Assembly (NCBI GenBank): GCA_050949315.1
Contig: JBMNFL010000001.1
Span: 32,001-96,000, forward strand
DNA: 64,000 nt
Direction of reading: 5' to 3'
Source of the DNA: Bacilli bacterium
Lineage (GTDB): Bacteria; Bacillota_I; Bacilli_A; RFN20; UBA1709
Both the position numbers and the translations under genes were made by a program. The notes beneath the pieces are model-generated. The model had not been told where the DNA came from. It made no database searches and saw only the letters and a list, made by a program, of their open reading frames with translations. Below, in pieces: positions 4,519 through 34,503 of this stretch (within the stretch, counting starts at the first letter, position 1; the number at the start of each line of letters is the position of its first letter).

Positions 4519-6458
4519 TAGTCCCGATGAAAAAAGCCAGAATTGTCATTTTGAAAGAAGACAAAGAGGACGTCCTCAAAGCTTTACAGCGCGCTGGCGA
4601 ACTAATGGTAATTCATACCGAGGATAGTCAAGAGACACTCGATTCTAGTCGTGCGGAGAACCTTGTCCAAAGGTCTCAAAGATCCTTGCAAACATTGAAA
4701 CCCTACACTGAAAAGAAGGGAATGTTTGATCAATCGAAGTTCTTTAATGTTGATTACGAAGATTTTGTTAATCCAAATCTTGAGAATGTTGAAACATTGG
4801 AACAGATTGAAAAGGCAGACGGAGCGATTTCAAGACTTAAAACGGAAAATGATGCCTGTCGCGAGTTTATCAAAACTCTCGAACCTTGGTCGGGTTTAGG
4901 TGGTAAATTGTCAACAATTTATGATTCTAAATACACCAAGATTCATCCTGGTTTTGTAGCCACAAAATTATTGGATGCTTTTATGGAGAATTTCCAAGAT
5001 CTTGAAAGCGAGGTTACGCTTTTTGGTCAAAGCGAAGATAGCCAAGCCGTACTGATTGTCAACTGGCATGAGGATGATGAAGCCGTAATGGAACAAATTA
5101 AAAGTTCAGGCTTCATGGAGACGCAGTTGCCAAACGAGGACAAGACAATTCACGATTTAGTGGTCGAGAAGCAGAAGGTAATCGAAGCTAATGAAGCTAA
5201 GATTGCTGAAATTGAAGACCAATTGAAGAAATTGGCGACCAAAGAAAGAGAGATTCAGATCTTTCAAGATCAAATGGCCACAGAGCTTGCTTACAAGCAA
5301 ACTCCGCTACAAACCACGGCGCAAACAGCACTAATTGTTGGATGGTGCAAAGCGAAGAAAACGGAGGTCATTAAAGAGGCCGTTGCTACAGCAACTCCAT
5401 ATTTCGATGTTGAATTTGTGGAGCCTGCTGATGATGACGATGTGCCGGTTGCTTTAGAAAACAACAAATTTGTTTCAAACTTTGAAACCCTAACTGATCA
5501 ATACTCTCATCCTAGCAGAAGTGATTTAGATCCTAATCCGGTTATGTCGGTTTGGTATTGGATGATTTTTGGTATGATGATGGGCGATGCCGGATACGGC
5601 CTTTTATTATTGCTTGCAACGCTTTTCATCAAGAAGTTTATGAAGCCAAAAGGTGGTTTTGCTAAACTAATCAATATCTTCTTCTTTGGAAGTATTACAA
5701 CCATGCTTTGGGGTATTTTATGGGGTAGCTATTTCGGTATTTCAGAAATAGGCGGAACCTCTTTAATTTTGTGGTTTAATCCCCAAAATGAACCTCTGGT
5801 TATGTTGGTTCTAACAATGATTATTGGAGTCGTCCACTTAAGTTTTGGCTTGGTGATGAAATGTATACTCTGTTTCCGTGAAGGTCAGTATTTTGCGGGC
5901 ATTTTCGATAATATTTCCTGGCTCGTCATAATGATTGGCTTATGCCTAGCTTTAGCTGACTTTGTGGGAGGTTTGATGCCCCATAGTTTCTTCTCGGCTG
6001 ATCCAGTGAAGATACCACCCGTTGTGGCAACTATAGGTTATGTTGTTTTAGCAATTGGTGCTGCTATGGTTCTATTTACGGCTGGTCGCGATAAGAAGGG
6101 TATTGGTAAGGTCACAGGTGGTTTAACCAGTTTATATGGTGTCACTTCCTATATTAGTGACATTCTTTCCTACTCACGGATTTTAGCACTAGCTATGTCA
6201 GGGGCGATTATCGCCTATGTCATGAACTTTTTAGCTGGCATGGTACAAAGTGGTGTCATTGGTTGGGTTCTCTCAATTGTCGTTTATCTCGTTGGTCATG
6301 TCTTCAACATTGCGATGAGTTTGTTATCTGCCTACGTCCATGACAGTAGATTACAGTATATCGAATTCTACGGAAAATTCTATGAAGGTGGCGGTCGTGA
6401 TTTCAAACCGTTATCGCTTCAGTACAAATACATTTATGAAATCAACGAAAAAAAATAA
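4515..6458 (+). CDS. ntpI: V-type ATPase subunit I (a)
   Basis: FGMMMGDAGYG, SDILSYSRILAL, VHDSRLQYIEFYGKFY. Confidence 0.95.
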   Translation: MIVPMKKARIVILKEDKEDVLKALQRAGELMVIHTEDSQETLDSSRAENLVQRSQRSLQTLKPYTEKKGMFDQSKFFNVDYEDFVNPNLENVETLEQIEKADGAISRLKTENDACREFIKTLEPWSGLGGKLSTIYDSKYTKIHPGFVATKLLDAFMENFQDLESEVTLFGQSEDSQAVLIVNWHEDDEAVMEQIKSSGFMETQLPNEDKTIHDLVVEKQKVIEANEAKIAEIEDQLKKLATKEREIQIFQDQMATELAYKQTPLQTTAQTALIVGWCKAKKTEVIKEAVATATPYFDVEFVEPADDDDVPVALENNKFVSNFETLTDQYSHPSRSDLDPNPVMSVWYWMIFGMMMGDAGYGLLLLLATLFIKKFMKPKGGFAKLINIFFFGSITTMLWGILWGSYFGISEIGGTSLILWFNPQNEPLVMLVLTMIIGVVHLSFGLVMKCILCFREGQYFAGIFDNISWLVIMIGLCLALADFVGGLMPHSFFSADPVKIPPVVATIGYVVLAIGAAMVLFTAGRDKKGIGKVTGGLTSLYGVTSYISDILSYSRILALAMSGAIIAYVMNFLAGMVQSGVIGWVLSIVVYLVGHVFNIAMSLLSAYVHDSRLQYIEFYGKFYEGGGRDFKPLSLQYKYIYEINEKK

Positions 6459-28829: not shown

Positions 28830-29735
28830 ATGAAAAAACTACATGATGTTTTACAACAATTAAAAGAAACCGGACATTACCTAATTGATACGGAAAACAA
28901 ACAGGTTTTGACCAGAGAACAGATTGGTGAAATGATTTCTAACGATTATATTGAGGCGGTTGAGTGTCTAGAAGACAATTCATTTATGGAAACTTTCCAG
29001 GTAGCTGATCAGCCGATGGCAGATCTTCTTCAAACTTTAGAGAGCAAATATGAAAAGCCCGAACAAATTCTATTTTATCTTCAATATGAATTAAGCCCCA
29101 ATTTGCCTTTTAGTTATCGTGAAATCGTTTATCGTGATGTTCAATCAATGGGCAACGCTATTTTAACTGATAAAGCGGAGAAGGAAACAATTTTAGAGGC
29201 GATGAAATTAAAGATGTTCTCCTTTTATGCTCGTTACAAAGAGTTAGATGCTGCCAAAGAAAAGATTGTGGAGCAGATTGATTTTGCCGAGAATTATATT
29301 ATTAAGCATCAAGATATAGCTTACTATCTTTTAGGTTACATCCTAGCGGATCGTAACTATTACAAATATGGGCGTCGAAAGTTTAAGTCCCTAGTGGTTT
29401 TCTATTCCTATTTGGTTGAAAAGAAAAAGTTATTATCTTTCTCGAAACGCATTGATGACGATTTGCTTTTCATGGCTTGGCTTTACTATCTAGGTCATGC
29501 TGAAATTATTGAAAAGTGGAAAGAAGAAGTTAATCGAGTTACAGAATTAGAATTTAGTGTTCTACACAAGTATGATGATGTCGGAGCTTTAAAACCCGAT
29601 CCTCTTAAATTAGAAAAAGATCGTGCCAAAGCTCAAAAGCTTAAAGAAAAAGAAGCTAGGAAGCAACAAGAAGCTGAAGAGGAAAAAGCCGTTCAACGTG
29701 TCACGGTTGAAAGAGTTAAGGAAAAAAAGAAATAG
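28830..29735 (+). CDS. hypothetical protein with charged C-terminal tail
   Basis: ATG at 28830 after AGGAGG; K/E-rich C-terminus. Confidence 0.6.
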   Translation: MKKLHDVLQQLKETGHYLIDTENKQVLTREQIGEMISNDYIEAVECLEDNSFMETFQVADQPMADLLQTLESKYEKPEQILFYLQYELSPNLPFSYREIVYRDVQSMGNAILTDKAEKETILEAMKLKMFSFYARYKELDAAKEKIVEQIDFAENYIIKHQDIAYYLLGYILADRNYYKYGRRKFKSLVVFYSYLVEKKKLLSFSKRIDDDLLFMAWLYYLGHAEIIEKWKEEVNRVTELEFSVLHKYDDVGALKPDPLKLEKDRAKAQKLKEKEARKQQEAEEEKAVQRVTVERVKEKKK

Positions 29736-29757
29736 AAGCAGGTGCCCCTGCTTCTTT
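29734..29757. terminator. bidirectional terminator between the hypothetical operon and trpS
   Basis: AGAAGCAGG-TGCC-CCTGCTTCT. Confidence 0.75.
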
Positions 29758-30748
29758 ATTTTCGATTTAGACCAAGTCTTTTGTAGACGCGGCTTAAAGT
29801 TTTGCGGGCTACAGATTGCGCCCTAGTAGCTCCTTCATCAAGCACTTGATCAAGGATTTTGCTTTCCATAATTTGCTGATAATTAGCTTGCAAGTTTTTT
29901 AGAAAAACTTCAACCGCATCGGCTACAGCTTTTTTAAATTCGCCATAGTTAGCACTTGCAAATTGTTTTTCCAAATCTGGGATGCTCTTATTTTCTAAAC
30001 AAGACATAATAGTTAGAAGATTAGAAATTCCCGGTTTATTGAGCGGATCATAATGAATGCTTGTTTCTGAATCGGTAACTGCACTCATGATTTTTTTGCG
30101 AGCGACTTTAGGCTCATCTAATAAATAGATACAGCCTTTATCGTCATCTTCTTCAGATTTTGACATTTTTTTGTCAGGATTTGATAAGGACATAATCCTT
30201 GCTCCAAATTCGGCAATTAAGGGTTTAGGAACGGTAAAGGTTGCACCAAAACGATTGTTAAAGCGCTGTGCAATATCCCTTGTTAGTTCAACGTGTTGTT
30301 TTTGATCTTCACCAACGGGAACATAATCGCTATCGTAAAGAAGGATATCCGCGGCCATTAAAGTAGGGTAGGTAAATAAACCAACATTATGATTTCCTTT
30401 TTTTTCTTTTTGCATTTTATCTTTATATTGGGTCATTCGGGCTAATTCACCCATGTAAGTATGGCAGTTTAAAATGAAGGCAAGATTGGCATGTTCTAAA
30501 ACGTCTGTTTGCATAAAAAGAGTGACTCTTTTGGGATCAAGACCGCTGGCGAGAAATAAAGCTGCGACGTCTCGACTGTTTTTTCTTAATTCTTGGCGCT
30601 CATTAGGAACGGTCACAGCATGCATGTTCGCCACAAAAATATAGAGCTCATACTCATCTTGATATTCAAGAAAATGCTTAATTGCTCCTAGATAATTGCC
30701 AATAGTTAGTTGACCGGTTGGTTTAATACCACTTAACATTCTTTTCAT
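29756..30748 (-). CDS. trpS: tryptophanyl-tRNA synthetase
   Basis: SGIKPTG.LTIGNY, YPTLMAADIL, VPVGEDQ, KMSKS. Confidence 0.97.
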   Translation of the reverse strand: MKRMLSGIKPTGQLTIGNYLGAIKHFLEYQDEYELYIFVANMHAVTVPNERQELRKNSRDVAALFLASGLDPKRVTLFMQTDVLEHANLAFILNCHTYMGELARMTQYKDKMQKEKKGNHNVGLFTYPTLMAADILLYDSDYVPVGEDQKQHVELTRDIAQRFNNRFGATFTVPKPLIAEFGARIMSLSNPDKKMSKSEEDDDKGCIYLLDEPKVARKKIMSAVTDSETSIHYDPLNKPGISNLLTIMSCLENKSIPDLEKQFASANYGEFKKAVADAVEVFLKNLQANYQQIMESKILDQVLDEGATRAQSVARKTLSRVYKRLGLNRK

Positions 30749-30764
30749 TTTAAAGCCTCCTTTA

Positions 30765-30957
30765 AATAAAAAAACACCATAATTAGGGACGAATTTCTCG
30801 TGGTGCCACCCTTTTTCACTCTTACGAGCCTCTTTTTTTCGATAACGGGAAAAGCGACATTAATCTCTGATAGCCCAACTTCACAAATTTGTCTAGTAAT
30901 TTCCAGCAGCCATTACCTTCCTAAAAGACGAGAACTTGCTAAAATCTATCTAATGTA
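30765..30957 (-). promoter_or_regulatory. Trp T-box riboswitch leader of trpS
   Basis: Minus strand AAGGGTGGCACCACG (30799-30813) with downstream TCGTCCCT; GCTG motif; specifier GAAGT-TGG-GCTA (Trp codon at 30875-30877). Confidence 0.85.
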
Positions 30958-30963
30958 TTTCTA

Positions 30964-30992
30964 ATTTTAATATCAAAAGAAGCTAAAGTCAA
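30964..30992 (-). promoter_or_regulatory. sigmaA promoter of trpS
   Basis: Minus strand TTGACT-17 nt-TAAAAT. Confidence 0.75.
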
Positions 30993-30998
30993 ATGTCA

Positions 30999-31020
30999 GT
31001 TGACTAGTTTTTACTATAAT
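30999..31020 (+). repeat. 22-bp target-site duplication, copy 1 (GTTGACTAGTTTTTACTATAAT)
   Basis: Identical to 32145-32166 and 33215-33236. Confidence 0.95.
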
Positions 31021-32144
31021 TGTGTTAGGTTGCAAATGATGTGAGACGTTTCTTACATCTTATCTCACCAGTAGTTTGAACCAATTCAATTAACTTTTCA
31101 AGTTCCACTTCATTAGGTGTTTTAAATTTAAGAACAAGCTTAGGTAAATTGTTGTATCTTTTGTTCCATAATTTACCTTGATATCTAAGATCATCGAGGG
31201 AATAAAATTTTAAATGTTTATAGAATTTATCTTGATCAATTCGATGACTTCTTTCTACCTTACCATTATGTTGGGGGGTTCTAGGCCTTATCAAGTGATG
31301 ATTTATATGGTTTGTTCTACAAAATCTTTCTAAATAGTTTTCATATTTTCTAACATTCACGCCCTTATTTTTGCGGCGAACTTTATCAGTGAATTCCACA
31401 CCATTGTCTGTTTGAATTTCCTTTGGAAAACAACCTATTTTCTTATAAGCGAAGATCAAAGCCTGAACACTTTCATACATTGAATGTTCGGCCGTGAAAT
31501 AAAGAACTCTTTTTCGTGAACATTCATCTAAGATAGTGTATTGATAAAATCGACCTTCCAAACTATCAATTTTGCATTCTTTGGGAACATATTTAACATC
31601 CATTTGCCATTTTTCATGAACCATTTTGGGCGTATGGTATTGTTTGTCATGCTTTTTAGGATTTGGTTTGTAGGGAACAAATTCTTCATTTCTTTTAAAG
31701 GTTCTTAGAACACTAGATGGCGAGATATCTATACCATCATGTTTTAATCTAACCCATATTTCAACAAATGATTGATCAGGATTTCTTCTGTGGAGATCTA
31801 GTATTCTCTTAACAATATTCGCTTTTAATTTATTAGGATGATCCGATAAAGGCCTATGTGATCGATTTAATAACGATTCTTTACTTCCATCAAATCGCTT
31901 TAACCAACGATATAACGAACTCCTTTTAACGTGATAAAAAGATAGAATTTTTCTTATTGGCCAGGACGAAACCGTCCTCCTTAAGCAGGCGTGTAATTTT
32001 GTTTCAATATCTACTGGTATATAATTTCTTTCTTGTGTTAAAATATCCATGGGCATCTCCTTCTATATTGGTTCAACTTCATTATAGATAAGATGCCTAC
32101 TTTTTTTTATTAATTTTGTCTCACATCATTTGATATTAAACACA
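31021..32144 (-). mobile_element. IS481-like insertion sequence A (1124 bp)
   Basis: TGT...ACA ends; 27-bp TIRs TGTGTTAGGTTGCAAATGATGTGAGAC and TGTGTTTAATATCAAATGATGTGAGAC; single DDE transposase whose stop codon lies in the TIR. Confidence 0.9.
31025..32056 (-). CDS. IS481-like DDE transposase (HTH + rve integrase core)
   Basis: SLYRWLKRF HTH; WQMDVK, QTDNG.EF and PQHNGKVERSH catalytic motifs. Confidence 0.92.
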   Translation of the reverse strand: MPMDILTQERNYIPVDIETKLHACLRRTVSSWPIRKILSFYHVKRSSLYRWLKRFDGSKESLLNRSHRPLSDHPNKLKANIVKRILDLHRRNPDQSFVEIWVRLKHDGIDISPSSVLRTFKRNEEFVPYKPNPKKHDKQYHTPKMVHEKWQMDVKYVPKECKIDSLEGRFYQYTILDECSRKRVLYFTAEHSMYESVQALIFAYKKIGCFPKEIQTDNGVEFTDKVRRKNKGVNVRKYENYLERFCRTNHINHHLIRPRTPQHNGKVERSHRIDQDKFYKHLKFYSLDDLRYQGKLWNKRYNNLPKLVLKFKTPNEVELEKLIELVQTTGEIRCKKRLTSFAT

Positions 32145-32166
32145 GTTGACTAGTTTTTACTATAAT
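32145..32166 (+). repeat. 22-bp target-site duplication, copy 2
   Basis: Exactly fills the gap between the ACA end of IS-A and the TGT end of IS-B. Confidence 0.95.
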
Positions 32167-33214
32167 TGTCTTAATTGTCAAGACATATGTTACACTTTGA
32201 GAAATATTCTGTTACAACTTGATTAGGGCTTTTAAAGTTAAGACATGTTTTAGCTGTATTGTTATATCGCTGCTCGTGTTTAGCTACTTGTTGTCTAAGT
32301 TCTTTCTCGCTAATAAAGATTTTTCGCCCATACAGAATTTTTCCATCTTCTCTATGACTTCTTTCAACTTTTCCGTTCTGCCACGGTGAATAAGGTCTCG
32401 TCCTTTTTAATTTTATTCCTAACTTATTGGCCGTCAGTTCAAATATACTCGTTTTATTAGTACGATCATCATCATTTACAAATTCGGCTCCGTTGTCCAC
32501 TTGTATCATATTAATTGGAAATCCCATGGCTTTTTCTAGGCTTTTAAGATATTTTGTCGTTTCGTACGTACTCTTCTCTTTGACTATACAGAGAATTCTT
32601 TTGCGACTAAACTCATCAATTCCAGTGATTTGATAATATCTGTCTCCATATGTTGGGAATTTTATGCATTCAAGGGGAACATACTTTATATCTATCTGCA
32701 CCTTGTCTCCAGGATATTTTCCGTCCAATCTTTCGTATTTTGTATAACTCTTACGATGAATTTCCGGGGTTTTATAACCCTTTTTTCGTATTTGTCGACA
32801 CATACTCCCAAAACTTCTTTTATACCCTTTTTGACAACATCGAACATATACTTCTGCCAATCCATAAACACCATTTCTTCTTAACATTCGCTTAATTAGC
32901 GACAGCTCATCATCTGTATGAGCATTTGGACTAGTTAGGGGTCTTCTTGAGCGCAAGGCAAGACTTCTGATGTCCCCATCATATTTGTTTAATTGCCTAT
33001 AAACAAACTGACGGTTGGTGTGATAACGCCTTGCGGCTCTTGTTACACCATTTTTGAGCGCATATTCACACATTTTCTGGCGAAAGCGCATTTCTTCGGT
33101 TATACTAGTCATGAGAGAGCTCCTTTCGGTACCTTTTTTTGGATAAACTTATTGTACCAGAGTCTCTCTCTTTTTTTATTTATTTCTGTAACATATGTTT
33201 TATCACACTACACA
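32167..33214 (-). mobile_element. IS481-like insertion sequence B (1048 bp)
   Basis: TGT...ACA ends; imperfect 28-bp TIRs TGTCTTAATTGTCAAGACATATGTTACA and TGTGTAGTGTGATAAAACATATGTTACA (20/28 by manual count). Confidence 0.88.
32171..33112 (-). CDS. IS481-like DDE transposase
   Basis: N-terminal HTH (AARRYHTNRQFVYR); VQIDIK, QVDNG.EF and PWQNGKVERSH. Confidence 0.92.
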   Translation of the reverse strand: MTSITEEMRFRQKMCEYALKNGVTRAARRYHTNRQFVYRQLNKYDGDIRSLALRSRRPLTSPNAHTDDELSLIKRMLRRNGVYGLAEVYVRCCQKGYKRSFGSMCRQIRKKGYKTPEIHRKSYTKYERLDGKYPGDKVQIDIKYVPLECIKFPTYGDRYYQITGIDEFSRKRILCIVKEKSTYETTKYLKSLEKAMGFPINMIQVDNGAEFVNDDDRTNKTSIFELTANKLGIKLKRTRPYSPWQNGKVERSHREDGKILYGRKIFISEKELRQQVAKHEQRYNNTAKTCLNFKSPNQVVTEYFSKCNICLDN

Positions 33215-33236
33215 GTTGACTAGTTTTTACTATAAT
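33215..33236 (+). repeat. 22-bp target-site duplication, copy 3
   Basis: Identical to copies 1 and 2. Confidence 0.95.
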
Positions 33237-33245
33237 TGTTAAAAT
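33216..33245 (+). promoter_or_regulatory. putative sigmaA promoter of spxA (its -35 lies in repeat copy 3)
   Basis: TTGACT (33216-33221)-18 nt-TAAAAT (33240-33245) with extended TG, 20 nt before the TTG start. Confidence 0.6.
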
Positions 33246-33265
33246 AACAACAGAAGGTGATTTAA

Positions 33266-33691
33266 TTGATTAGAATCTATACGTCTCCAAGTTGTGCTTC
33301 CTGTCGTAAGGCCATCGCCTTTTTAAAGGAGCACAAAATCCCTTTCAAGGAAAAGAATATTTTGACGGCGCTTTTGTCGGAGGCGGAAATTAGAGACATT
33401 TTGGTAAAAAGCGAAAACGGGACTGATGATATTATCTCTAAGCGCTCCAAAATTATTAAGGAGGGTAATGTTGATATTGATAGTATGAAAGTCAGTGAAT
33501 TAATCGCTTTTATTCGTGAAAATCCAACGGTTTTAAAGCGACCTATCATCGTTAATGATCGCTTGATGCAAGTTGGTTATAATAAAGAAGAGATTAGGAC
33601 CTTTATCCCGCGAGAACTACGTCGTCTCATGTATGAGAGTAATTGTGGTCCGGATTGTCCTAATTGTAAGGATGATTGTTATAAAAAATAA
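33266..33691 (+). CDS. spxA: Spx-family transcriptional regulator
   Basis: TSPSCASCRKA CXXC, ENGTDDIIS, LKRPII, QVGYN, FIPR; trpS-spxA-CYTH-nadK neighbourhood as in Bacilli. Confidence 0.92.
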   Translation: MIRIYTSPSCASCRKAIAFLKEHKIPFKEKNILTALLSEAEIRDILVKSENGTDDIISKRSKIIKEGNVDIDSMKVSELIAFIRENPTVLKRPIIVNDRLMQVGYNKEEIRTFIPRELRRLMYESNCGPDCPNCKDDCYKK

Positions 33692-33716
33692 AACATGGTT
33701 TCAAGCCATGTTTTTT
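33690..33716. terminator. bidirectional terminator between spxA and nadK
   Basis: AAAACATGGT-TTCAA-GCCATGTTTTTT. Confidence 0.75.
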
Positions 33717-34503
33717 AATCAAGAAATTTTTCTTTGATTTTCTTCAAGAAACTATTTTCTCGGAAGTGAATTAAGTTCACACATTTTGGACTAAGCTGGA
33801 CTTCAATTTTCCCGGCTTTCGGTTTTTTTATGGAGTAGTAATCAATGCCGATGTAGGCGGATTCAAAATATTGAGATTCTAGGCTTATTTTGTGTGTTTC
33901 ATCTAAAATTAAGGGATTTAATAAAGTGCGAATATTCCGAGTATTGATTGGGGCGATTTCGCTAATAGTTATAGCCTTAATTGTGCGCTCAACTAAGGGA
34001 CCGCCTAAGGAACGGTTGTAAGCAGTTGAACCTAAAGGACTGCAAATACAAAGACCATTACCAAAGGTTTTTTCAAAGTCTTGATTATCAATTGCAACAT
34101 TAATTTCTAAAGTGCGAAAACGGTGTTCTACACGCAGTTCATTAACACAGAAATGTTGCTCCTTTTTATCATCATAAAAATAATTTACTTCCAGTAAATG
34201 ACATTTTTCTTCTTGGTAGTCTTTAGTTAAAAGATCATCAATTAAAAGATTGACATCTTTAGAATTATAGTCGGTTAAAAAACCAAGTGTCCCCGTGTTC
34301 AAAGCGACAAATTTAGTTTTATCGAGTTGGTTCAAGTAACGATGAATGGCCCGCAAAACCTTGCCGTCGCCGCCAATAACAATAACAAATTCAGGATTAA
34401 CATCATCATTAATCCAAGCATTAGCTTCCAATTCTTCCCTAATTCTTTGGGCAGCATTAATGGAGAAATTATCGGTGCGACTATAGATGGTAAACTTTTT
34501 CAT
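33715..34503 (-). CDS. nadK: NAD kinase
   Basis: IGGDG, GTLGFL, NE, GSTAYNRSLGGP. Confidence 0.93.
   Translation of the reverse strand: MKKFTIYSRTDNFSINAAQRIREELEANAWINDDVNPEFVIVIGGDGKVLRAIHRYLNQLDKTKFVALNTGTLGFLTDYNSKDVNLLIDDLLTKDYQEEKCHLLEVNYFYDDKKEQHFCVNELRVEHRFRTLEINVAIDNQDFEKTFGNGLCICSPLGSTAYNRSLGGPLVERTIKAITISEIAPINTRNIRTLLNPLILDETHKISLESQYFESAYIGIDYYSIKKPKAGKIEVQLSPKCVNLIHFRENSFLKKIKEKFLD

Follow-up and report, generated by a model that had tools for sequence, protein, structure and literature searches.

Two divergent IS481-like elements stacked between identical 26-bp repeats upstream of trpS in a Bacilli bacterium: a probable case of promoter-anchored insertion

The region between the trpS and spx genes of a Bacilli bacterium (NCBI GenBank assembly GCA_050949315.1, contig JBMNFL010000001.1) contains two different insertion sequences, here called IS-A and IS-B, which lie head to tail between three identical copies of a 26-bp repeat. 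The genome is a single contig of 1,011,443 bp with a G+C content of 37.7%, and the stretch of 64,000 nucleotides that was analysed (hereafter the window) corresponds to its positions 32001-96000. An initial annotation of the window had described three identical 22-bp repeats around two different elements. The 22-mer starts at positions 30999, 32145, and 33215 of the window, where it is present in exactly three copies without mismatches, and no match was found in any of 100 shuffles. When the other genomic copies of the elements are aligned with those of the array, the two outermost bases at either assigned end fall outside the alignment; therefore, the duplicated unit is 26 bp and not 22 bp long. 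With the boundaries corrected in this way the arrangement is confirmed, and consists of a first copy of the target-site duplication (30997-31022, plus strand), IS-A (31023-32142, minus strand, 1,120 bp), a second, exact copy (32143-32168, plus strand), IS-B (32169-33212, minus strand, 1,044 bp), and a third copy (33213-33238, plus strand). The 27th base shared by the three copies is a T, which comes from each element tip and, by coincidence, from the native flank. The CA and TGT that had seemed to occur both beside the native target and at the element ends are a consequence of having placed these ends 2 bp too far out. A whole-genome search for the 27-mer found no further copy, even allowing five mismatches.

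On the left of the array the minus strand carries trpS (29756-30748), encoding tryptophan-tRNA ligase (TIGR00233, 367 bits; Pfam tRNA-synt_1b). The gene is preceded by a T-box leader (30782-30962, minus strand; Rfam RF00230), for which the whole model was matched with an E-value of 4.8e-15. This match has a score of 68.6 bits, below the gathering score of 93; a scan of 29500-34000 at the gathering threshold gave no match, and the T-box is visible only with an E-value threshold. The leader starts 2 nt downstream of the -10 box of the predicted trpS promoter (30964-30992, minus strand), which is composed of the -35 box TTGACT (30992-30987), a 17-bp spacer and the -10 box TAAAAT (30969-30964), with 10 of 12 consensus matches. 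Between this -35 box and the first repeat there is a gap of 4 bp (30993-30996, as read from the sequence), equal to the peak of the register scan described below, so that the first repeat occupies the region from about -65 to -40 with respect to the trpS promoter. At the right end of the array, the -35 box of the likely spx promoter (33216-33245, plus strand; TTGACT, an 18-bp spacer and TAAAAT with a TG extension; 10 of 12 matches) falls within the third repeat. The spx gene itself (33266-33691, plus strand) follows and encodes a regulator of the Spx/ArsC family (NF002459, 167 bits). As a result of the long duplication, the divergent trpS and spx promoters were both left whole.

IS-A has TGT...ACA tips and inverted repeats of about 25 bp, and the tips of IS-B are TCT...ACA. 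The transposase genes are both on the minus strand, at 31025-32056 (IS-A, 343 aa) and 32171-33112 (IS-B, 313 aa), and their products are 38% identical. The IS-A transposase matched the Pfam domains rve, rve_3 and HTH_32/23/28, and that of IS-B matched rve and rve_3; in an alignment of the two proteins with eight relatives, D153, D217, and E268 (numbering of IS-A) are invariant. The best NCBIfam model for both was IS481 (NF033577), with 176 bits for IS-A and 157 bits for IS-B against a cut-off of 224, in agreement with the initial description of two IS481-like elements with divergent transposases. Across the family, the element ends contain a hexamer similar to TTGACA or TTTACA, followed by 8 nt to the tip. 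We also observed that the transposase reading frame enters the inverted repeat, both in IS-A (31023-31047) and in relatives, the stop codon being 2 nt from the tip; since the frame runs into the repeat, a conserved C-terminal peptide, K-R-L-T-S, is encoded by the conserved repeat core.

Whether the array could be an assembly artefact was checked in public sequencing runs. Of the words sampled from 30500-33700, 95% or more were present in 20 runs, which belong to 13 studies of metagenomes from bioreactors, anaerobic digesters, and landfills. Four of these runs, X2, X3, X4, and X6, chosen so as to exclude the possible source of the genome, were compared at contig level using Logan contigs. In X2, X3, and X6, which come from three other studies, separate contigs span all three junctions of the array. 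The outer junctions are represented by contigs running from the flank through the repeat into IS-A and from IS-B through the repeat into the spx flank, and the middle one by an 85-86-bp unitig (32113-32198) that joins the end of IS-A to the start of IS-B across the repeat, at about single-copy depth. In X4, both outer junctions were present among the matches listed. The array is therefore genuine and not a product of assembly. No joint skipping IS-A or IS-B was found among the matches listed in the four runs, the contigs of which can miss rare forms. The depth ratios suggest about seven copies of IS-A in these runs. The depth of IS-B with respect to single-copy flanks was about 5-6-fold in X2 and X6, about 6-9-fold in X4, and about 11-13-fold in X3, and several IS-B flanks seen in the four runs are absent from the genome analysed here. 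The varying depth and the additional flanks suggest that IS-B is active and moving in these populations.

Seven full copies of IS-A, all identical, and four full copies of IS-B, 99.6-100% identical, are present in the genome, the IS-B copy of the array carrying two private substitutions. Flush direct repeats are found at six of the seven IS-A copies (five perfect repeats of 25 bp, in addition to the 26 bp of the array) and at three of the four IS-B copies (26 bp, 25 bp, and 25 bp with one mismatch). The two copies without a direct repeat are IS-A at 244376-245495 and IS-B at 959946-960989. The duplicated sequence is different at every one of the IS-A and IS-B sites. This result indicates that the 26-mer neither travels with the elements nor serves as a shared recognition sequence, and the stagger, initially set at about 22 bp, is 25-26 bp on the evidence of these other copies. 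Tabulating them had been suggested at the outset as a check, and the outcome is long duplications of unrelated sequence. The proposal that the repeat itself is the recognised target was accordingly given up; the feature that the sites share is a promoter outside the duplication (see below). The reading of the repeat as a palindrome resembling dif or Xer sites was dropped as well; its weak palindrome and any likeness to Xer sites are irrelevant, because the same elements duplicate unrelated sequences elsewhere. When the three IS-B duplications were inspected by eye for a shared internal motif, nothing convincing emerged from this small sample.

Long duplications are a property of the whole clade. 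A protein search returned 3,002 relatives, almost all of them metagenome proteins, and, with an alignment of IS-A, IS-B, and eight relatives, 80 loci were retrieved from species genomes and 80 from metagenomes, covering a broad range of Bacillota, mostly from gut or digester samples. A script searching for flush direct repeats beside T-N-T...CA tips with matching inverted repeats was applied to 134 loci, or pseudo-loci from the genome analysed here, that had both flanks. Thirty-nine rows passed, and after the removal of two duplicate own-genome rows 37 unique insertions with flush repeats were left, with duplications of 24 bp (one insertion), 25 bp (18), 26 bp (17), and 27 bp (one). The unusually long duplication initially noticed at the array, 25-26 bp for the two elements, thus extends to 24-27 bp in the clade. 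The elements of the relatives measure 1,050-1,284 bp. The 95 rows in which no repeat had been detected were examined again, which gave 65 with clear inverted repeats and no direct repeat, two with decayed repeats, two good repeats that had been missed (at locus L153 and at one own copy of IS-B), 22 without a recognisable pair of inverted repeats, and four with flanks that were too short. Copies lacking a repeat are far commoner among the relatives (the 65 just mentioned) than in the finished genome (two of 11), and many of them still have a promoter at the register described below on one side. Such copies likely derive from recombination between copies and from chimeric short-read assembly across a multi-copy element. 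Among IS481-like elements, this clade with its duplications of 25-26 bp forms a widespread branch that seems not to have been described before.

The sites have in common a promoter placed at a fixed distance from the duplication. At six of the seven IS-A copies, a hexamer resembling a -35 box begins 4-5 nt outside the duplication on the transposase-distal side and is separated by about 17 nt from one resembling a -10 box; further downstream lies a ribosome-binding site with its start codon, an RNA leader or a similar feature. The same pattern is present at two IS-B copies (1006019 and 159742), a third lying upstream of a tRNA gene, and in the relatives it is found on one side or the other. Promoters were scored against TTGACA / 16-18 nt / TATAAT, out of 12 matches, with A2 and T6 of the -10 box required and the TG extension not used. 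Among the 37 insertions, with the start of the -35 box set 4 nt outside the duplication, the promoter score was at least 9 of 12 at 22 sites and at least 8 at 29 sites; at all other registers from 0 to 30, a score of at least 9 was reached at 0-4 of the 37. At random positions in the same loci, 0.20 sites of 36 on average and never more than 2 reached this score, as compared to the 21 of 36 observed. An independent set of 57 relatives without direct repeats but with good inverted repeats showed a peak at 28-30 nt from the tip (7, 14, and 15 sites, with 0-2 elsewhere).

The same result was obtained when no side was chosen and all 190 flanks of 95 loci were scanned, calling -35-like any hexamer with at least five of six consensus matches. 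The -35-like hexamers peaked at 29 and 30 nt from the tip (16 and 24 flanks; elsewhere mostly 0-2 and at most 6), and the -10-like hexamers at 52 and 53 nt (29 and 31 flanks; elsewhere mostly 1-5 and at most 7). The TG extension, which is typical of Bacillota promoters, accompanied 15 of the -10 boxes at 52 nt and 21 of those at 53 nt. Altogether, 58 of the 95 loci had a promoter with a score of 9 of 12 or more at the register on at least one side (27 of 37 with direct repeats and 31 of 58 without). This promoter was on the transposase-proximal side at 34 loci, on the distal side at 19, and on both sides at five, and the side tends to follow the subtype of the element end. Although the IS-A copy at 244376-245495 lacks a direct repeat, a promoter-like site is present beyond its distal end at roughly the distance expected, a pattern that points to rearrangement of the opposite flank after insertion.

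The stack itself is not confined to this genome. Locus L063, from another organism, contains three copies of a 25-bp repeat starting at positions 2329, 3600, and 4813, in the order repeat, A-like element, repeat, B-like element, repeat, with both elements in the same orientation. After the last repeat there are 4 nt, TTGAAA, 17 nt, and TATAAT (4842-4870). The B-like element is therefore proximal to the promoter in L063 and IS-A is proximal in the window, so that either order occurs. When a total of 171 loci and own-genome pseudo-loci was scanned for a triplicated 20-mer, only L063 and the array of the window were found. In-frame stops are present in both transposase genes of L063 (2354-4812), for example a TGA in the first. 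A further stacked arrangement may be represented in run X3, where an end of IS-B is joined to an IS-B start across 27 letters, at a depth of 20.1 with respect to 21.9 for the flanks. In the genome analysed here (374899-374993), the same 27-letter stretch lies beside a 68-bp remnant of the transposase-distal end of IS-B, 4 nt from TTGAAA-17-TATCAT, which is followed by a ribosome-binding site and ATG. The simplest reading of the X3 joint is a chromosomal tandem of IS-B; a circular form of IS-B could also give such a joint in contigs. The initial suggestion that each insertion regenerates the site, and that arrays can therefore expand, agrees with the L063 stack and with the IS-B/IS-B joint.

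We think it probable that the array arose by two successive, ordinary DDE transpositions, in which both IS481-like elements inserted at one and the same point ahead of the trpS promoter, and that they belong to a clade whose insertion is anchored to promoters. In the target, the transposases of this clade would make two cuts 25-26 bp apart, namely a near cut, separated by 4 bp from the upstream edge of the -35 box of a sigma-70-type promoter, and a far cut lying another 25 bp or so upstream. The duplicated stretch would span about -65 to -40, with the anchoring promoter outside it and pointing away, and gap repair would restore this stretch beside the promoter, leaving the site a full target. 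Because the anchor is outside and the stretch is regenerated, the next arrival would stack, and n elements would come to lie among n+1 identical repeats. In the same way, with the near cut set by the promoter and the stagger fixed, any two elements of the clade inserting at the predicted trpS promoter, which we propose as the anchor of both insertions, would make identical cuts. The use of the same cuts and the same orientation by both elements, already noted initially, was borne out, and the shared orientation would follow from the fact that IS-A and IS-B here place the transposase-distal end toward the promoter, as is the case at six of the seven IS-A copies and at the IS-B copies 1006019 and 159742. 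The promoter-proximal element would be the youngest, so that here IS-B would have arrived first and IS-A second. This order fits the identity of the IS-A copies and the two private substitutions of the array IS-B, although these do not amount to proof. According to a rough estimate, a double hit among 11 insertions is not unlikely if a few hundred promoters are available, and very unlikely if insertion is random in 1 Mb.

Several observations weigh against this explanation. At 37 of the 95 loci with clear inverted repeats, neither side has a promoter that reaches 9 of 12 at the register, and 65 loci have inverted repeats and no direct repeat. The IS-A copy at 200715 has a -35-like TTGATT at the register and no convincing -10 box (8 of 12), and seems to lie in coding DNA. 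All the promoters are predicted from sequence, and independent support, provided by the T-box, concerns that of trpS only. No empty site and no single-element intermediate was seen among the matches listed in the four runs, so the arrival order is deduced rather than observed; the nearest genomes belong to other genera and are at most 76% identical within trpS, and their intergenic DNA is not comparable. Selection for harmless sites certainly adds to the pattern. We infer, nonetheless, that the register reflects targeting and not survival alone. Random insertion into a genome of 1 Mb, with survival limited to harmless sites between genes, would fit the compactness of this genome and a duplication that leaves the trpS and spx promoters whole. 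Survival cannot, however, yield a register of 1-2 bases with respect to the -35 and -10 boxes, nor the same base pair being hit twice; chance and selection together are a scarcely credible explanation. Equally hard to believe is that the 22-27-bp sequence, as an imperfect palindrome that may bind a protein or resemble a Xer site, is the specific target of both elements. Two different elements did use exactly this sequence, but the eight further duplications made by IS-A and IS-B in the genome and the 31 made by their relatives are all unrelated to it and to one another, and, as said above, the 27-mer has no second copy in the genome.

How the promoter is sensed is a separate question, and the TTGACA-like hexamer 8 nt from the tip of the elements is a further point to be set against our explanation, since it suggests that -35 boxes may be bound by the transposase itself and that RNA polymerase may play no part. 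In that case DNA sequence alone would be the anchor: a DNA-binding domain of the transposase that binds the TTGACA-like hexamer of its own inverted repeats would also bind -35-like hexamers of the target, with the near cut 4 bp away, and -10 boxes would be seen merely because surviving insertions adjoin real promoters. The conservation of TTGACA/TTTACA plus 8 nt in the inverted repeats across the family is in line with this, as are the TTGA or TTGC found at or within 1 nt of the register in all seven IS-A flanks, and the sharp peak of -35-like hexamers at 29/30 nt from the tip. We nevertheless consider it unlikely, though well worth keeping in view. Both in strength and in sharpness of position, the -10 signal equals or exceeds that of the -35 box (60 flanks as compared to 40), and 20 of 60 docked promoters have three or fewer of six consensus matches at -35. 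The mean -35 match of TG-extended docked promoters is only slightly above that of control promoter-like sites (4.0, n = 36, vs. 3.5, n = 50). Moreover, the hexamer of the target lies on the opposite side of the cut relative to its place in the element end. Given the sharp placement of the -10 box and the weak dependence on -35, we lean toward a promoter bound by polymerase or toward bent upstream DNA. If insertion is promoter-anchored, the chances are about even that what is recognised is the complex of RNA polymerase holoenzyme and promoter, or the DNA shape that it imposes. The initial idea of a protein-bound or structured target may hold in this form, as an RNA-polymerase-bound promoter. 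A more radical version, which we advance tentatively and rate somewhat below even chances, is that the clade reads no DNA sequence at all, docks on the holoenzyme at a promoter, and cuts at about -40 and -65, with the host promoter retaining all of its upstream region and the site open to indefinite reuse. As to the stacks, the second element might instead have been drawn to the related end of the resident element, or to the junction between end and repeat, the promoter being irrelevant. Attraction of insertion sequences to related ends is known in other families, and both assembled stacks pair the same two subfamilies, which have similar ends. This is improbable all the same, because lone insertions obey the same promoter register, which by itself predicts identical cuts, because the promoter-proximal element is IS-A in the window and B-like in L063, and because only these two of the 171 loci and pseudo-loci scanned have a triplicated 20-mer.

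With respect to known families, the elements are too small for IS1202 and their duplication is too long for the listed IS481 elements, their sequences being closest to IS481. The IS481 family comprises elements of about 1-1.3 kb with inverted repeats starting with TGT. IS-A and IS-B resemble it in size, in having a single open reading frame with helix-turn-helix and rve domains, and in the TGT tips, those of IS-B being TCT...ACA. Relatives in a plasmid collection are 23-32% identical, and every annotated one among the matches listed is of IS481 type (e.g., ISKpn27). In contrast, the transposases score below the NCBI cut-off (176 and 157 vs. 224), and the duplications are of 25-26 bp, as compared to the 2-15 bp of IS481 elements in ISfinder quoted by Kojima (PMC10045372, in the portion of the article available to us). 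The same portion of that article notes that the duplications of IS481, IS1202, and IS481EU fall into discrete classes of about 5, 15, and 25 bp, and describes, for the IS481EU elements of parabasalids, duplications near 4, 15, and 25 bp that suggest cuts one helical turn apart. IS481EU differs from our elements in being eukaryotic, in the rarity of its 24-25-bp class, and in that no promoter rule is described for it there.

The IS1202 family, as presented in the accessible part of a preprint (bioRxiv 10.1101/2022.12.17.520857), consists of elements of 1.32-1.99 kb whose transposases measure 400-500 aa and have additional conserved D residues and a Q at position E+7, and is divided into three subgroups with repeats of 5-6, 15-17, and 27-28 bp, of which only the first targets Xer sites. 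Our elements share with the IS1202 subgroup the very long duplications, the TGT tips, and a DDE transposase of rve type. They differ from it in length (about 1.05-1.3 kb vs. 1.32-1.99 kb), in transposases that are about 100 aa shorter, and in the size of the repeats, which are 27-28 bp in that subgroup and mostly 25 or 26 bp here, with one insertion of 37 at 27 bp; that part of the preprint reports no target rule for this subgroup (10.1101/2022.12.17.520857). The residue at E+7 is Q275 in IS-A and its close relatives, and IS-B has a G at this position and a K one residue later. In the stretch that bears on a further feature of the IS1202 family, D177 alone is nearly invariant among IS-A, IS-B, and the eight relatives aligned with them.

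A closer parallel for the stacking is offered by the ISAba32-type elements, for which the same part of the preprint describes stacks at Xer sites, composed of four ISKpn21 copies or of ISAba54 with ISAju2, with the same 5-bp repeat between the elements; Siguier et al. inferred there that the copy proximal to the Xer site was the last to arrive (10.1101/2022.12.17.520857). To judge from these pages, the principle of arrays with n+1 repeats is already in print. Here as there, the anchor is outside the duplication at a fixed distance, and n elements are accompanied by n+1 identical repeats. Unlike the ISAba32 subgroup as described there, which is anchored to XerC/D sites, duplicates 5-6 bp, and has transposases of 400-500 aa, the present clade is associated with promoters, duplicates 25-26 bp, and has transposases of 313-343 aa in IS-B and IS-A; in addition, its orientation toward the anchor is not uniform. 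Duplicated and flanking sequences were unrelated between our sites, and the feature they have in common is a -35/-10 promoter and not a XerC/D site. We found no report in the literature of 25-26-bp duplications by such small elements, nor of promoter docking in the IS481 or IS1202 families.

Two other systems invite comparison. In CRISPR adaptation, an anchor outside the repeat positions the two staggered attacks of Cas1-Cas2, which are separated by one repeat length; a second copy of the repeat results, and the latest unit lies by the anchor. The analogy with Cas1-Cas2 drawn in the initial annotation stands as far as this geometry is concerned (an outside anchor, a long stagger, and the newest unit by the anchor) and does not extend to any relationship. 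Unlike CRISPR, the array has no Cas1 homology, guide, spacer, or immunity function, and its units are whole insertion sequences with DDE transposases. The second system is that of Ty3 and Ty1, in which an integrase of rve type is guided to RNA polymerase III promoters by the transcription machinery. The docking proposed for the array elements is comparable, binding to RNA polymerase being here a conjecture only.

If the promoter rule holds, the elements would make a safe landing, in which no gene is broken and both the promoter and the far side are kept whole, and their persistence in a genome of 1 Mb may be due to this. Promoter anchoring would also provide a testable case of a bacterial transposase guided by the machinery of transcription start or by its DNA signature. 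Docking on the holoenzyme, if true, would be a bacterial counterpart of Ty3/Ty1 at polymerase III promoters, and this version would be the considerably more novel one. If correct, it would moreover offer a reason for the discrete 5-, 15-, and 25-bp classes, with the far cut one, two, or three helical turns from a common anchor. In practical terms, the insertion sites could mark promoters in uncultured Bacillota, and the enzymes are a possible tool for promoter-proximal insertion. That plain transposition can build arrays of alternating repeats and units is relevant to CRISPR-like layouts met in metagenomes.

Two minor observations concern remnants of the elements and their ends. Fragments similar to IS-A or IS-B were found at 433964-435608, 198741-198939, 842770-842836, and 989496-989553; they are 80-100% identical over 43-251 bp, some of them adjoin, and they may be decayed older insertions or stacks. 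In the consensus of the family ends (L016, L030, and others), the distal end read outward shows TTGACA 8 nt from the tip, and the proximal end read inward shows TACAAT 8 nt from the tip. If the two ends were abutted about 1 bp apart, these hexamers would form a strong -35/-10 pair, comparable to the junction promoters known in copy-out-paste-in elements.

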